The position numbers and the translations under genes were made by a program. The notes beneath the pieces were generated by a model that was not told the origin of the DNA, did not search any database, and saw only the letters and a program-made list of their open reading frames with translations. From NCBI GenBank assembly GCA_015059045.1, contig SVBD01000008.1:9355-73354 (forward strand): a stretch of 64,000 bases of DNA, in the 5' to 3' direction. This DNA comes from Erysipelotrichaceae bacterium (GTDB lineage: Bacteria; Bacillota_I; Bacilli_A; RFN20; CAG-449). Numbering within the stretch: the stretch's first letter is position 1; each line of letters begins with the position of its first letter. Positions 4,970-31,883 of the stretch are shown one piece after another.

Positions 4970-7483
4970 ATGAAAAGAAAATTAGGACTATTTTTATCAT
5001 TTATTTTAATTGTTTGCGGGTTTATCAATTTTCATAATTCAAAAAAACCTGTAGATGCGGCTGAAGGCAGTTATTATAGTAGTGTAAGTGGAAAAACTGG
5101 AGATAGTTTATTAGAAGGATTAGCATCTCTTTCTAAGAGCAAACATACTTCATATACAACTTATGGAGATTTAAAAAATATGTTTGCTTCATCTGATTAT
5201 GCATCAAGTGGAAAAATTTATGATTTCTACACTCAAACTAAAATGTCAAGTTCTTGGTCGGGAGGTCATTTTGATCGCGAGCATGTTTGGTGCCAAAGTT
5301 TATCGGGAAGTTTATATACTTCAATAACTGATGACGATGTAGGTGCTGGTGCTGACCTTCATCATATTAGACCAACGTACGATAATATTAACTCTAGTAG
5401 AGGAAATAAAAAATATGCAGAAATTAGTGGAGGAACCGCTAAATATTATAGTATTGCAAATGATAGTGTTTCTAACTCAACAAGTAGTGATTTACTTTAT
5501 GGTTATACTTCTGGAGACTATTTTGAACCAATCTCATCGGTAAAAGGGGATGTAGCTAGAATTTTAATGTATATGTATATGCATTATTCTAAAGAAGTTA
5601 GCGCAAATAGTTCACATTATTATGCAGGAGCCCTTTCAATAACTAATATTGTATATACTTCAAGTGGAACAAGTGATTCGGCTTTTGATTTGCTTTGTAC
5701 TTGGAATAGTTCAGATCCAGTAAGTTCTCAAGAAATGACAAGAAATGAATATGTAGCAGGAGTAACAGGTGTTAGAAATCCATTTATTGACCATCCTGAA
5801 TATGCAGATGCAATTTGGGGAGACGCATCAAGTGGTGGATCTACTTCAACTCCTGATAGTGGAAATGAGGATTCTTCTTCATCAACAACTCCACCTAGTA
5901 GTGGAGAAAATACAGGAACAACCACTCCACCTAATTCTTCTACTGGCGGAAATGGACAATATGACTCAACTACTGAAACAATTACTTCGACAGTATATCG
6001 CAAATTAAAATCCGCATCAGGAATTACAGTTGGAAGTAAAATTATTATTGCTGCAAGTGATTATAATGTTGCAATGAGCACTAATCAAAAAACAAATAAT
6101 AGAGGGCAAACCACTATTTCTAAATACTCCTCTGGTAGTTATGATTATTTAACTCCTAGTTCTTCTACTCAAATTTTAGAAGTTAAATCTGGAGATAACA
6201 CTAGCGGCTATACTCTTTATACTGGTGATGGATATTTAGTTGCATCAGGAGGAGATTCTAGTAATAAATTAACAACAAAAGCATCTATTACTAGTGACAA
6301 AATTGCAAGATGGACAATTCACTTTAGTAGTGGAAATGCAAATATTGTATGTGTTGATTCTAGCACAACAAGAAATACTATAAGATATAATTCTACCAGT
6401 AGTTTATTTAGTTGCTATGAATCGGGACAACAGGACGTTTCTATTTATAAAGAATATACTGAAACTACTTCAATCACTTATACTTTCCCAGAATCTGAAT
6501 CATTAATTACAATTTCTAAAGCAAATGAGGTAGCTAATAAAGCGGGAAGTTCTTATAGTGCTAGCAAATATAAGATACAAGGAACTATATCTAGTATTTC
6601 AAATACAACATATGGTAACATGACTGTTTCCGATTCATCAGGCAATTCAATATATATCTATGGTGTTTATGGAAGTGATGGAACAAGATATGATTCGCTT
6701 GGAATTCATCAACCACAAGTTGGTGATACAGTAATGTTATTTGGAACATTAGGTACATATAATGAATCTCCACAAATGAAGAATGCTAGTATATTAAATT
6801 TATCAAAACAAACTAGTGCATCAAATGATCTTAATAGTCTCTTAAATAAGTATATTTCTGATGGCAAGTACACAAAAATTAGTAATATTTATCTTTCTAA
6901 AGAAGCGCAACAAGATATTTCTTTATATTTCCACGCTAATATAGTAGATAAAGAAAGAATTACATATTATAACCAAAATGCATTATGGATGACTAATTCA
7001 ACAGGTAGTGTAAACTCTGGATATGGCACTGATGCTTTTGGTGATATGACACACTTTAAATTGAATAATGATGGTTCTCAAACAATTGACTATACTATCG
7101 ATATGCCAAATAACGGTGGTATGGAAGAATTTTATGACACGCCAAATGATTTCTTAGCTTCTTCTTATTATGATTCAAATTGGGTGTATTTAACCAATGT
7201 TGGTTATGTATATGATTTAGCAAAATACTACGAAGGAAATACTAAGGCGGCAAAATATTTAGAAGAATTTATTAATGTTGCAGCACCATTATTGTTAACT
7301 GAAGTATATACTTCTAATTATTTAAGATTAGATAAACTAATCATTACTGAAGTTAATAATCAATTAATGTTTGCAATTACCGTCCATAGCACGAGTTCTG
7401 GAGTGTTAGATGAATCTGCAAGAAGTGAATTGCTATTATGCAAGTCGTTAATTACCGCGGGATGTAGTTATTCATTTAATTAA
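4970..7483 (+). CDS. Secreted multidomain nuclease: Endonuclease I (EndA/NucM/Bsn family) domain, Ser/Thr-rich linker, C-terminal OB-fold domains
   Basis: Signal peptide MKRKLGLFLSFILIVCGF...VDA|AEG. Motifs HFDREHVWCQS and DLHHIRPTYDNINSSRGNK match the EH and beta-beta-alpha-Me signature of PF04231. Low-complexity SSGGSTSTPDSGNEDSSSSTTPPSSGENTGTTTPPNSSTGGNG linker. Later YKIQGTISSISNTTYGNMTVSDSSGNSIYIYGVYGSD...VGDTVMLFGTLGTYNESPQ is an OB-fold. Confidence 0.65.
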   Translation: MKRKLGLFLSFILIVCGFINFHNSKKPVDAAEGSYYSSVSGKTGDSLLEGLASLSKSKHTSYTTYGDLKNMFASSDYASSGKIYDFYTQTKMSSSWSGGHFDREHVWCQSLSGSLYTSITDDDVGAGADLHHIRPTYDNINSSRGNKKYAEISGGTAKYYSIANDSVSNSTSSDLLYGYTSGDYFEPISSVKGDVARILMYMYMHYSKEVSANSSHYYAGALSITNIVYTSSGTSDSAFDLLCTWNSSDPVSSQEMTRNEYVAGVTGVRNPFIDHPEYADAIWGDASSGGSTSTPDSGNEDSSSSTTPPSSGENTGTTTPPNSSTGGNGQYDSTTETITSTVYRKLKSASGITVGSKIIIAASDYNVAMSTNQKTNNRGQTTISKYSSGSYDYLTPSSSTQILEVKSGDNTSGYTLYTGDGYLVASGGDSSNKLTTKASITSDKIARWTIHFSSGNANIVCVDSSTTRNTIRYNSTSSLFSCYESGQQDVSIYKEYTETTSITYTFPESESLITISKANEVANKAGSSYSASKYKIQGTISSISNTTYGNMTVSDSSGNSIYIYGVYGSDGTRYDSLGIHQPQVGDTVMLFGTLGTYNESPQMKNASILNLSKQTSASNDLNSLLNKYISDGKYTKISNIYLSKEAQQDISLYFHANIVDKERITYYNQNALWMTNSTGSVNSGYGTDAFGDMTHFKLNNDGSQTIDYTIDMPNNGGMEEFYDTPNDFLASSYYDSNWVYLTNVGYVYDLAKYYEGNTKAAKYLEEFINVAAPLLLTEVYTSNYLRLDKLIITEVNNQLMFAITVHSTSSGVLDESARSELLLCKSLITAGCSYSFN

Positions 7484-29100: not shown

Positions 29101-29723
29101 ACGGATGGGCTTATGACATCGGTTACGGCGGACTTGATCACGTATTAGCTAACGAAGAAGATGTTAACGTAATGGTATTAGATACAGAAGTTTACTCAAA
29201 TACAGGTGGACAATCATCTAAATCATCTCAAACAGGTTCTATCGCTAAATTTACAGCTTCAGGAAAGAAATCTGCTAAGAAATTCTTAGCGTTAATCGCT
29301 ATGAGTTATGGTCACGTTTACGTTGCTCAAGTTTCTATGGGTGCTAATAAAGTTCAAGCTATTAAAGCATTAAAAGAAGCTGAAAGCTATAATGGACCAT
29401 CTATCGTAATTTGTTACTCACCATGTGCTAACCACGGTATTAAAGGTGGATTAGCTAACGCTCAAATTACTGAAAAGAAAGCTGTTGAATGTGGATACTT
29501 CCCAATCTTCAGATATGATCCAAGATTAAAAGAACAAGGTAAAGATCCATTACAAATCGATTGCCAAGAACCAGATTTCAGCAAATTCAGAGATTTCTTA
29601 ATGACAGAAACACGTTATTCTCAATTACCAAAAGTAAATCCAGAACATTGTGAAGAGTTATTAACAAAATCACAAAAATACGCTGAAGATCGTTGGAATA
29701 GATTAAAGAAATTCCACGACTAA
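26151..29723 (+). CDS. nifJ: Pyruvate:ferredoxin (flavodoxin) oxidoreductase, single-chain PFOR
   Basis: 1190 aa. Two 4Fe-4S ferredoxin motifs (CIQCNQCAFVCP; CVGCGLCVVECP). TPP-binding GDG...N region. N-terminal domain I typical of por/nifJ. Confidence 0.95.
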   Translation: MAEVKKSFLSVDGNTATALASYNFTEVASIYPITPSSTMAELVEQYACEGKKNCFGTQVKVVEMQSEAGASGTVHGALQAGALSTTYTASQGLLLMIPNIYKWVGECLPAVLHVSARSLATRSLSIFGDHQDVYACRQTGATMICAHSVQECADLAPVAHLTAIKSRVPVIHFFDGFRTSHEIQNVEFVSDEDWSSLIDQDQLQAFRKSALNPHSHPVTRGGAENDDIYFQGREAQNSHFANVVKVAEEYFKEATRLTGRTYAPFVYYGAEDAERVIVAMGSVTECIREVVDSLNAKGEKVGLVKVHLYRPFSAKHLVDVIPASVKKIAVLDRTKEMGATGEPLYLDVVSALEQEGRNVEVVLGGRYGLSSKDTQPKHMKSVFDFLNAENNWHSFTVGINDDVTHLSIPVDEEFHVEANYTSCLFYGLGSDGTVSANKSSIKIIGDATGQYAQAYFAYDSRKAGGVTRSHLRFGKEPIHSTYYIEHADFLSCSLDSYIFKFDMLKCLKKGGTFLLNTDIPASEIEARLPNRLKRQLAKKNAKFYIIDANAIAGKIGLGRRTNTILQASFFYLNQSIMPYAEAQDWMKKFAKKAYGKKGDDIVQMNWEAIDAGAEGLVEVPVKAEWAELPGNRVYATTGDEYFDSYVNVIGSLDGYDLPVSKFTEYELLDGTMRNDVTFKEKRSIADRVPVWHKEYCIQCNQCAFVCPHATIRPFLLNDEEFAGLPENVKDDVLPAIGGPQSKGLRFRIQVTPRNCVGCGLCVVECPGKPVKDENGNLVKMKALSMVESKSQFEVQEPAADYLYKHVEYKTGGTPVTTVKGASFLMPYVEVSGACAGCGETPYYRLASQLFGRDMLIANATGCSSIYNGSTPLTPFCTDKNGEGVAWANSLFEDNAEYGYGMRVATDYKLADICRILEANKAECEEELQAAIDDYIAHIKDRDYVRTIKDNLVALVEKSTCEGVKEVLAYKNDLVDKSVWIVGGDGWAYDIGYGGLDHVLANEEDVNVMVLDTEVYSNTGGQSSKSSQTGSIAKFTASGKKSAKKFLALIAMSYGHVYVAQVSMGANKVQAIKALKEAESYNGPSIVICYSPCANHGIKGGLANAQITEKKAVECGYFPIFRYDPRLKEQGKDPLQIDCQEPDFSKFRDFLMTETRYSQLPKVNPEHCEELLTKSQKYAEDRWNRLKKFHD

Positions 29724-29739
29724 TTAAGTAGAATTTTAT

Positions 29740-29766
29740 AGAGTGCGTTTTCGCACTCTTTTTTTG
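29740..29766 (+). terminator. Rho-independent terminator after the PFOR gene
   Basis: agagtgcg-tttt-cgcactct followed by ttttttt. Confidence 0.8.
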
Positions 29767-29788
29767 TTGAATTTATAGGTTTCTTCGA

Positions 29789-29819
29789 TTGACATTTTCA
29801 AACGGGGGGGGGTTATAAT
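29789..29819 (+). promoter_or_regulatory. Sigma-70-type promoter TTGACA-N19-TATAAT with a G9 homopolymer inside the spacer
   Basis: ttgaca ttttcaaac ggggggggg t tataat. G9 at 29804-29812. 19-nt spacer (optimum 17). RBS aaaggaga and ATG at 29844 follow. Confidence 0.55.
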
Positions 29820-29843
29820 TTTCTTAGAAAGGAGAATAAAAAA

Positions 29844-30308
29844 ATGAAAGCACTAAATGTATTATCAAAAGTTTTCTTTGTTATTTCTGTTTCATTCATT
29901 TCTGCTCTTTGTGTTTTTGATATTGGAATTGCATCTCTAGCACAACTTGCGATTTTAGCTGTATTATTAGGTATTTTCCTAAGATACACTAAAGGGGATG
30001 TTACTCAAAGAATAGGTAATGCTTTATATATCTTTGGATGCCTTTTTGTAATTGTAACCATTTTTGTTAGCGAATATATAGCATTTGGCTGTATTCTTGC
30101 AATAGTAGGCGTAGGATTTGCTGGATTTGGTTATTTTGTAGATTTCTTAATTTATGTAAAATCAAGTAAAACTGCAAAAGTATTAAATCCAAATATGGAT
30201 CCAAAAGTTGTTGCGTTAAAGACTTGGAAACAATATTGTGAAGAAGGATTTGTCACAAAAGAAGAGTACGAAGAAAAACGTAAAGAAATTCTTAATATTA
30301 ACGAATAA
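29844..30308 (+). CDS. Membrane protein (3-4 TM) with C-terminal SHOCT-like domain
   Basis: Hydrophobic N-terminal two-thirds. C-terminal KTWKQYCEEGFVTKEEYEEKRKEIL resembles the SHOCT short C-terminal domain. Confidence 0.5.
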   Translation: MKALNVLSKVFFVISVSFISALCVFDIGIASLAQLAILAVLLGIFLRYTKGDVTQRIGNALYIFGCLFVIVTIFVSEYIAFGCILAIVGVGFAGFGYFVDFLIYVKSSKTAKVLNPNMDPKVVALKTWKQYCEEGFVTKEEYEEKRKEILNINE

Positions 30309-30319
30309 AGAATTAATAA

Positions 30320-30346
30320 AGGCGCTATTTTTTAGCGCTTTTTTTG
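30320..30346 (+). terminator. Rho-independent terminator
   Basis: ggcgct-atttttt-agcgc followed by tttttttg. Confidence 0.65.
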
Positions 30347-30492
30347 TGTGGTAATAGGCATATTGTTTTTTCAGGATTAAAAATTTATATTTCAAGATCT
30401 ATTATGATTTACGCTTTAATTATTTTATATGCATTTAGACATATATTTTATTACAACGAAAAACAAGAGAATAGTTAGTTCCCTTGTTTTCT

Positions 30493-31713
30493 TTATTTAG
30501 ATATTAAATGATTTGTATAATCTCGATCAATAGTTGGATAAGCAAAGAAATTTTCATTGATTAACTTAATTCTAGCAACTAACATATTTTTGATTTGTGT
30601 ATCAGTTAGTTTTTCATTCATTGGAACTAATAAATCAAATACGATATTTGTATGTGTTGGTCCTTTTACTATTCTAAAATCATGAATAGAGCAAGGGAAT
30701 GAAAAGTCTTTTAAGCAACTTAATACTTGGTGTTTTACTTCGTCTTGATAAGGATCATTTAATACTACAGGATCCATATGAATGGTAGTGAATATTTTTA
30801 ACTCTTCTAGACATGCTTTTTCGATGTTATCAATTAAATCGTGAGATATTAATACATCAATTTGAGAATCGATTTCTACATGGCAAGTTGCAAATATACA
30901 ATTTGGACCATAACTATGCATTTGTAAATCGTGAATTCCTAAAATATTTTCATATGATAAAACTTTATTAGTGAAAGCTTGCACTGTTTCTTTTTCTGGG
31001 GCTTTTCCTAGTAGTGGGTCTACTGTTTCTAAAATTAATTTATATCCAGATATTCCAATGAAAACTCCAACTAAGCAACCTAAAATTCCATCCAAACTTA
31101 CTTTTCCAAGTGGTACAAAGAAATTAATTATCATACCAATTAAAACTACTGAAGTCATGATTACATCATTTCTTGAATCTACTGCAGTTGCTTTTAATAC
31201 TGATGAATCAATTTTATTTCCAACAGAATAATTTACTAACGCTTGATAGATTTTAAATAAAATAGCAAACCCTAATATACTAAGAGTAACAACAAATTCT
31301 GTTGTTCCCATTTTAGAGTTAACTTTTACTCCTCTAGCAACATCGATAATATCCATTACAGATGAATATATTAACACTATTCCTAAAGCCGCAATTAATA
31401 TTGATACGATAAATCCGGCAATATATTCAATTCTAGCGTGACCAAATGGATGATCGTTGTCCGCTGGTTTATTAGATAATTTGATTCCAATTAACGAAAT
31501 GAAACTACTAGAAGCATCTGTTAAATTATTAACAGCATCAGCGGTAATAGAAATAATATTAAATAATAATCCAACAACGAATTTTAAGGAGCAAATTATA
31601 AAGTTAGAAACGATTCCAAAAATACTAGCAAGTGTGCCATATTTTGAACGGACTTTGCTATCTTTTACATCGTTAGGATTTTTAATAAATATTTTGGTTA
31701 ATAATTTAAACAT
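30493..31713 (-). CDS. Cation diffusion facilitator (CDF) family divalent-metal efflux transporter
   Basis: CDF signature around DASSSFISLIG...HPFGHARIEY. Six TM segments and C-terminal cytoplasmic domain. Start chosen at MFKLL, which has an AAGGAG RBS (ORF track begins 51 nt upstream). Confidence 0.75.
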   Translation of the reverse strand: MFKLLTKIFIKNPNDVKDSKVRSKYGTLASIFGIVSNFIICSLKFVVGLLFNIISITADAVNNLTDASSSFISLIGIKLSNKPADNDHPFGHARIEYIAGFIVSILIAALGIVLIYSSVMDIIDVARGVKVNSKMGTTEFVVTLSILGFAILFKIYQALVNYSVGNKIDSSVLKATAVDSRNDVIMTSVVLIGMIINFFVPLGKVSLDGILGCLVGVFIGISGYKLILETVDPLLGKAPEKETVQAFTNKVLSYENILGIHDLQMHSYGPNCIFATCHVEIDSQIDVLISHDLIDNIEKACLEELKIFTTIHMDPVVLNDPYQDEVKHQVLSCLKDFSFPCSIHDFRIVKGPTHTNIVFDLLVPMNEKLTDTQIKNMLVARIKLINENFFAYPTIDRDYTNHLISK

Positions 31714-31883
31714 AAATAACTCCTTATTAATTCTATTAATTAAATTATAAGATATATAAATCAAAATTTGTTAATAATTGTGATTTTAAATTAGATATTT
31801 TTTGATTTATTGTTTTCTATTTTTTCATATTATATAATTTAATCACTTTTCTAAGAAAAGGTAAACGATTAAAAGGTGAGATT

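Follow-up and report, generated by a model that had tools for sequence, protein, structure and literature searches.

The window analysed here is a 64-kb stretch of DNA from an Erysipelotrichaceae bacterium, in which a small membrane-protein gene lies between genes for pyruvate:ferredoxin oxidoreductase (PFOR) and a cation-efflux (CDF) protein. The protein encoded by this gene is found unchanged at NCBI as MBE6132510.1 (Erysipelotrichaceae bacterium metagenome-assembled genome, locus tag E7180_03850) and on a JGI contig of 76.7 kb matching the window. The gene is preceded by consensus -35 and -10 hexamers whose spacer contains a run of nine G residues, the sequence being ...cgaTTGACAttttcaaacGGGGGGGGGtTATAATtttcttagaAAGGAGaataaaaaaATG, and the coordinates of all features are collected in Table 1. 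Because the PFOR gene ends in its own intrinsic terminator upstream of the promoter, the small gene is expected to be insulated from read-through, and because a second terminator follows it, the unit bracketed by the two is expected to be monocistronic. A promoter scanner did not list this promoter, since its spacer is N19 and the scanner is limited to spacers of 16-18 nt. The first-pass annotation had described nine G between consensus hexamers separated by 19 nt, and its coordinates and counts were exact; its estimate of ~28% GC was not, the measured values being 30.6% for the whole window and 26-30% around the locus.

Table 1. Features of the promoter-gene unit and its neighbours, in window coordinates.
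Feature	Position	Strand	Remarks
PFOR, 1190 aa	26151-29723		Upstream neighbour; Pfam domains
Upstream intrinsic terminator of the PFOR gene	29740-29766	+	Stem-loop 29740-29759 plus T run; 8-pair stem with 5 GC pairs
-35 hexamer TTGACA	29789-29794	+	6/6 consensus match
Promoter spacer, 19 nt (ttttcaaac-G9-t)	29795-29813	+	
G9 homopolymer, proposed slipped-strand hypermutable element	29804-29812	+	Only G/C run of at least 6 in the window
-10 hexamer TATAAT	29814-29819	+	6/6 consensus match
Predicted transcription start	29826-29827	+	Inferred from sigma-70/SigA geometry, 7-8 nt downstream of the -10
RBS AAGGAG	29829-29834	+	9 nt before ATG
A7 run	29838-29844	+	Between RBS and start codon; includes the A of ATG (29844)
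Small membrane-protein ORF, 154 aa	29844-30308	+	From the ORF list; gene proposed as controlled
Downstream intrinsic terminator	30318-30342	+	Bidirectional stem-loop
CDF gene	30493-31764	-	Convergent, downstream neighbour

The rest of the window is ordinary chromosome, with a ribosomal-protein/secY region and other housekeeping genes, and no mismatch-repair genes were found among the ten larger ORFs scanned in it. An 837-aa ORF at 4970-7483 carries an Endonuclease I domain (PF04231, E = 9e-35) that spans residues 71-277 only; the ORF is unusually long for this family, and its remainder is unannotated. In the nearest GTDB representatives, labelled "uncultured Bacilli" and located with the CDF protein as query (73% identical), PFOR adjoins CDF and the small gene is absent. 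The small gene unit is thus accessory, as the closest representative genomes are without it. No relatives of the small protein were found in species-representative genomes or JGI metagenomes, and a search of metagenome contigs for the exact DNA pattern with a variable gap gave no match.

We then asked how unusual the tract is for DNA of this composition. Runs of G in the 64-kb window comprise seven G5, no G6, G7, or G8, and the single G9, and there are no C runs of six or longer. Base composition predicts 7.3 G5 runs, so these occur as often as expected, but only 0.0085 runs of at least nine for G and 0.0006 for C, in keeping with the original remark that nine consecutive G would be unlikely by chance. 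At nine residues, the tract also exceeds the ~7-8 from which a G/C repeat is regarded as hypermutable. No other notable simple-sequence repeats were present in the window. The G9 promoter is also the sole perfect TTGACA-N15-21-TATAAT in the window, which alone is not significant (0.46 expected, with one or more in 38 of 100 shuffles). The significance resides instead in the coincidence of a G tract with its placement inside a promoter spacer, and the G9 tract is not a chance feature. Across all 107.5 kb of the loci fetched for comparison, moreover, each G/C run of at least 7 was the promoter tract of a SHOCT membrane-protein family gene.

The product was modelled with AF2 at a pLDDT of 91.4, with helices at residues 2-25, 31-47, 52-75, 81-114, 120-133, and 139-149. 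On this model, the protein is predicted to consist of four transmembrane (TM) helices followed by a C-terminal two-helix SHOCT domain, in agreement with the first description of a small membrane protein with a SHOCT-like tail. The loops between TM helices are only 4-5 residues long and the SHOCT tail is of cytoplasmic type in the model, so this does not look like a typical phase-variable surface antigen or adhesin. Against Pfam SHOCT (PF09851), the window protein reached 17 bits (E = 0.0051) and so fell short of the gathering score of 27 bits, whereas 41 of 42 family members matched at E < 0.01 (best 2.2e-8), and the two short C-terminal helices expected of SHOCT correspond to 120-133 and 139-149 of the model. 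SHOCT membership is therefore convincing at the level of the family, with the window sequence by itself under the threshold. The tail is a 28-residue two-helix domain with the consensus WKxLxxEGIITxEEFExKR, followed by ILG. The four-TM N-terminal module belongs to no curated family, a match to DUF7649 being weak (E = 0.0023), and a fold search of the PDB with the AF2 model returned no match at E ≤ 0.001. The function of the SHOCT domain is given as unknown in PMC3581485, and the domain has been proposed to act as an anchor to the inner leaflet of the membrane (PMC11237479).

A phage or plasmid origin was considered for the gene and rejected. A tblastn search of phage and plasmid collections gave no match, PADLOC profiles did not match the small protein, NCBIfam gave no significant match to it, and PHROGs gave weak matches only, to the SHOCT tail of the window protein and to the TM region of family member P0002. 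Searching viral contigs with a family sub-alignment recovered only unrelated SHOCT proteins, all without tracts. Another protein search, word-indexed and run with the family profile, became saturated with SHOCT words and yielded little more.

To compare tract lengths within the species (species A), we recovered its promoters from independent public assemblies through exact or near-exact protein look-up (protein 99%-100% identical). The tract was G9, with a 19-nt spacer, in the window and in contigs L001 and L002; G8, with an 18-nt spacer, in L004; and G10, with a 20-nt spacer, in L012 and L014. G7, which would give a spacer of 17 nt, was not seen among species A contigs. The flanks were almost identical apart from the tract, which was the sole site with three length alleles. 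A further allele, in L011 (270-325), had the tract GGGGAGGGG (G4AG4), a -35 of TTGATT, and a 1-nt deletion, for a spacer of 18 nt. With its tract interrupted by A, its -35 changed, and one spacer base deleted, it is in effect a natural "locked" allele; it looks like an interrupted, stabilized form, and, because the homopolymer is broken, it should no longer be prone to slippage.

Several contigs have features of their own. The G8 contig L004 (779 bp, ERZ27303370) encodes a 99% identical protein, and its flanks differ from those of the window on both sides: upstream (1-160), it does not contain the 3′ end of PFOR (compare window 29700-29770), and downstream (690-779), it diverges ~60 nt after the terminator (compare window 30370-30400). 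Possible reasons are a second genomic location for the unit, mobility of the unit, or chimerism of this short contig. The ENA scaffold L014 switches abruptly to unrelated high-GC sequence at ~470-883 and is probably chimeric, and its 5′ part alone was used. Two short contigs, L013 and L022, begin within the tract or at its edge, and two others, L025 and L003, begin just after the promoter. Such breaks are expected for within-sample length heterogeneity, though poor coverage of G-rich sequence could also cause them, and they are not proof. We also considered a two-color poly-G sequencing artifact as the source of the tract and rejected it, as the tract is short and lies inside long contigs with the same flanks in independent studies.

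In a sister species (species B; protein 63% identical), the tract was also present and also varied, as CGC-G7-TATAAT in L005 and L006 and as G9 in L015. The first-pass annotation had proposed that length heterogeneity from G7 to G10 be looked for across isolates, and such heterogeneity is seen in G8, G9, G10, and G4AG4 of species A and G7 and G9 of species B. The species B promoter has two TTGACA copies 10 bp apart (TTGACAATAATTGACA), which lie 13/15 or 23/25 nt from TATAAT. As these distances are outside the functional range, the species B tract is not explicable by spacer tuning as it stands, and a spacing-independent role for the tract is conceivable. The species B gene is truncated to 118 aa and lacks the SHOCT tail (L005, 5001-5840), and with such a truncated gene, the locus may be decaying. 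The same region of L005 has an extra 120-aa gene, with a weak match to bPH_2 (bacterial PH domain), between the small gene and CDF.

Next, we turned to the gene family as a whole, for which an exhaustive profile search recovered related proteins in only 49 clusters (at 50% identity). Most of these proteins are 160-200 aa long and share the N-terminal TM module and the SHOCT tail. Five lineages with DNA, out of these 49 clusters, were available for comparison of promoters (P0008, P0010, P0035, P0011, and P0045). P0008 (33% identical to the window protein; host GC ~44%) has TTGATT-tttgtctc-G9-ct-TACAAT, with a spacer of 19 nt. P0010 (27% identity; host GC ~50%) has TTGAC(G/A)-aatgcta(c/t)-G9 or G10-TATA(A/T)T, with a spacer of 17 or 18 nt. 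P0035 (18% identity; host GC 38%) has TTGACA-tta-C7-T6-TATACT, with a spacer of 16 nt. The G/C tract is absent from P0011 (30% identity; host GC 26%) and P0045 (20% identity; host GC 55%). Counting species A and B as one, a G/C homopolymer of at least 7 abuts the -10 within the spacer in four of six independent lineages, and the arrangement thus recurs in most lineages of the gene family for which DNA was fetched.

Length polymorphism was found in all four poly-G lineages (species A, species B, P0010, and P0008), so that tract length differs between natural populations of each. Among P0010 contigs, L018 and L023 have G9, and L019, L020, L021, and L024 have G10. An alignment of eight contigs from this lineage (2,201 columns) contains 16 variable columns, 4 of them inside the 31-bp promoter, and its single indel is the tract; the promoter of L023 differs from that of L020, L021, and L024 by tract length alone. 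In the P0008 lineage, G9 was found in L016 and L017. A cluster-mate of P0008, P0056, is an over-called ORF in which the reading frame runs through the promoter, giving the peptide ...FVSGGAYNIFVITRRNFM..., and since this N-terminal extension is translatable from G8 only, a G8 allele can be deduced for the lineage. L016 and L017 encode an identical P0008 protein, with shared sequence starting ~95 nt upstream of the ATG (CAACGATGAAGCC...) and unrelated sequence beyond that point (L016 1-140 compared with L017 1-95), which suggests that the P0008 unit occurs in more than one genomic context.

The tract-bearing lineages have a common layout of -35, 6-9 nt, tract, 0-2 nt, and -10, the -35 being TTGACA, TTGATT, or TTGACG. 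Species B aside (13/15 or 23/25 nt), the observed spacers are 16-20 nt and straddle the 17-nt optimum. This layout is present in hosts of 30%, 44%, 50%, and 38% GC and in remote homologues with protein identity of ~27%-33%. Gene GC matches host GC wherever the flanking sequence is sufficient, and spacer sequences are unrelated between lineages, which together argue against a recently transferred cassette. That the layout is kept despite the drop in identity, in genes whose GC tracks that of their hosts, argues for selection on the tract, which appears to have been either retained or repeatedly re-created across lineages.

In the P0045 member (L028 1895-2090, identical to L029 1617-1812), which lacks a homopolymer, the promoter is TTGACA-N18-TATAAT and includes a TGC extended -10. 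Between this promoter and the RBS is a GC-rich leader of ~165 nt, and there is a second TGTTATAAT near the gene. This leader had no Rfam match at E up to 1, and it may be an uncharacterized leader or riboswitch that controls the same gene family differently. In the 26%-GC lineage, L026 (1888-3019) carries two SHOCT-tailed small membrane-protein genes in tandem, of 166 and 172 aa; neither has a G/C tract, and the second gene is preceded, at a distance of 83 nt, by an A8 run.

Collectively, these data make it likely that the locus is a simple-sequence-repeat (SSR) contingency promoter, phase- or volume-variable, for the four-TM SHOCT-tailed protein. A slipped-strand switch had been suggested from the window by itself, and the allelic series and the recurrence of the tract in remote lineages now support it by comparative sequence. 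We propose that a consensus sigma-70/SigA promoter drives the monocistronic small gene and that slipped-strand mispairing during replication adds or removes G residues, shifting the spacer among 17, 18, 19, and 20 nt. Each change would alter the contact of RNA polymerase with both hexamers and hence transcription, with promoter strength expected to fall away from the 17-nt optimum, and the change would be heritable, reversible, and stochastic. For the window allele, G9 with a 19-nt spacer, the prediction is low or near-off expression, with G8 (18 nt; L004) stronger and G10 (20 nt; L012 and L014) weaker or off. The commonest states are sub-optimal ones, G9 as here (spacer 19) and G10 (spacer 20). 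Several elements of this proposal are inferred from sequence: that the TTGACA and TATAAT hexamers would form an active promoter, that slippage would be the cause of the length differences, that length change would be frequent and reversible within a clone, and that tract length would set expression. Against it stand these sub-optimal commonest states, the lack of a G7 allele among species A contigs, the species B spacing, the tract-free lineages P0011 and P0045, and a product that is atypical cargo for such switches.

The tract could alternatively be a fixed cis-element, either a regulator site or a rigid G:C block that shapes the spacer and the stretch directly before the -10, conserved by selection for that function, with length differences of ± 1-2 nt as tolerated drift. 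It always abuts the -10 and clusters at 9 ± 1 across very distant lineages; in the window promoter, G at -14 and -15 overlaps the extended -10 position without completing a TGn motif; and species B keeps its tract although a 13/15-nt spacing fails the spacing model. In P0035, however, C7 and T6 take the place of G, leaving both strand and base unconserved, which argues against a sequence-specific site. A regulator site would also not be expected to change length as freely as the tract does in the four poly-G lineages, in one of which (P0010) it is the sole indel in 2.2 kb, nor does a fixed element fit with L011, where the tract is interrupted and the -35 altered too. Furthermore, there is no conserved regulator gene nearby, the gene neighbors differing in every lineage compared. 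Given these data, we consider a fixed element unlikely.

Somewhat less likely still is that the length differences are neutral strain polymorphism or assembly homopolymer errors, with no high-frequency switching and no regulatory effect. Illumina chemistry is known to have trouble with poly-G, and the evidence comes from consensus contigs, in which homopolymer lengths can be wrong since some assemblies have a coverage of ~5x (L005 and L012, from contig names). The neighboring T7 and A7 runs also have occasional 1-nt indels in single contigs, so some background homopolymer variation exists: the A7 run is A6 in L014, near position 195, altering the RBS-to-ATG spacing by 1 nt, and in L011 and L014 the PFOR terminator has a tail of T8 in place of T7. 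Yet the same tract lengths recur in independent runs (G10 in L019, L020, L021, and L024; G9 in the window, L001, and L002), and the G8 allele of P0008 was captured independently, through a gene call. Neutral variation or error would also leave unexplained the placement of the tract in a consensus spacer (0.0085 per 64 kb) and its recurrence in unrelated hosts.

RNA polymerase can slip on a homopolymeric run of G located at a start site or close to one, and the G-initiated pyrG transcript of Bacillus subtilis is an example of reiterative transcription. That the G tract acts in RNA in this way, or within a leader that starts further upstream, and not as a DNA spacer is highly improbable here: P0010 does have a second TTATAAT 20 nt upstream of its tract, but no lineage-independent -10 hexamer is suitably placed upstream of the tract, the PFOR terminator lies ~45 nt upstream of it, the fold predicted for RNA from 29765-29850 does not improve on shuffled sequence (z = -1.41), there is no Rfam match at E up to 1, and the sole feature common to all tract-bearing lineages is the -35/tract/-10 frame.

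We compared the proposed SSR promoter switch with known systems. Repeats in the promoter spacer give on/off switching through spacing in the vlp genes of Mycoplasma hyorhinis (poly-A) and in hifA/hifB of Haemophilus influenzae (TA repeats); several vlp genes carry such a promoter, and the products of the vlp and hif systems are surface lipoproteins or fimbriae. The Mollicutes, to which M. hyorhinis belongs, are phylogenetic neighbors of Erysipelotrichia. Here, by contrast, the repeat is G, not A or TA, and no second copy of the poly-G promoter was found in the 64-kb window, as against the several vlp genes of M. hyorhinis. The poly-G tract of the pilus loci of Bifidobacterium breve reportedly lies inside coding sequence and acts by frameshift, not promoter spacing. 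These loci, from a Gram-positive gut commensal, are described in PMC9187656 as having a poly-G ON/OFF replication-slippage switch.

Closer parallels are found in poly-G promoters. In Neisseria meningitidis, porA is described in PMC7864442 as having a poly-G of ~9-11 in the -35/-10 spacer, the length of which sets transcription from high to none. The window locus resembles porA in its homopolymeric G within the putative promoter spacer and in the different tract lengths of natural isolates. Whereas porA encodes a major surface porin and antigen of a Gram-negative pathogen, the gene here belongs to an uncultured gut Erysipelotrichaceae bacterium (Bacillota) and encodes a tiny four-TM protein with a cytoplasmic SHOCT tail and hardly any exposed loops, for which the switch is predicted. 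The tp0126 gene of Treponema pallidum also has poly-G between -35 and -10, with transcription best at 17-nt spacing (PMC7864442). The tract of tprL in the same species is 7-11 G, mostly 9, within isolates, and in a reporter, G8 was active and G10 near background (PMC7864442). Tract lengths of 8, 9, and 10, as in this tprL series, were also found here; T. pallidum has poly-G promoters at tp0126 and tprE/G/J/L. T. pallidum differs in being a spirochaete with outer-membrane products and in having within-clone variation, detected by fragment-length analysis, whereas variation here is between samples only. By this analogy, the mechanism appears to be one already known, matching porA and tp0126, in a new host group.

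Most descriptions of SSR phase variation come from host-adapted pathogens (such as Neisseria, Haemophilus, Campylobacter, Helicobacter, Treponema, and Mycoplasma). No SSR promoter switch in Erysipelotrichaceae came up in our full-text literature searches, and the phase-variation literature found for gut commensals mostly concerned invertible promoters. The locus offers a testable example in an uncultured gut or rumen lineage of Bacillota, with a natural allelic series from G7 to G10. It also gives a first functional handle on an uncharacterized SHOCT membrane-protein family, of which populations appear to need a heterogeneous or tunable amount. We can speculate that a stand-alone, patchy, and stochastically expressed protein of this kind is a costly, conditionally useful bet-hedging factor.

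What is unusual here is the apparent link, itself readily testable, between the switch and an entire, uncharacterized gene family. We suggest tentatively, as a possibility that we rate below even, that the poly-G or poly-C spacer is an ancestral and selectively maintained partner of the four-TM SHOCT family in uncultured gut Bacillota. If this is true, the switch would have stayed with the gene while protein identity fell to ~27% and host GC went from 30% to 54%, and the locus would be one of a small number of contingency loci whose conservation extends beyond a species to a gene family. The protein would then be of use only if made by part of the population, and it could be a costly, membrane-active bet-hedging factor against phage or envelope stress. 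Were such coupling to hold, promoter homopolymers could serve to flag bet-hedging genes in metagenomes.
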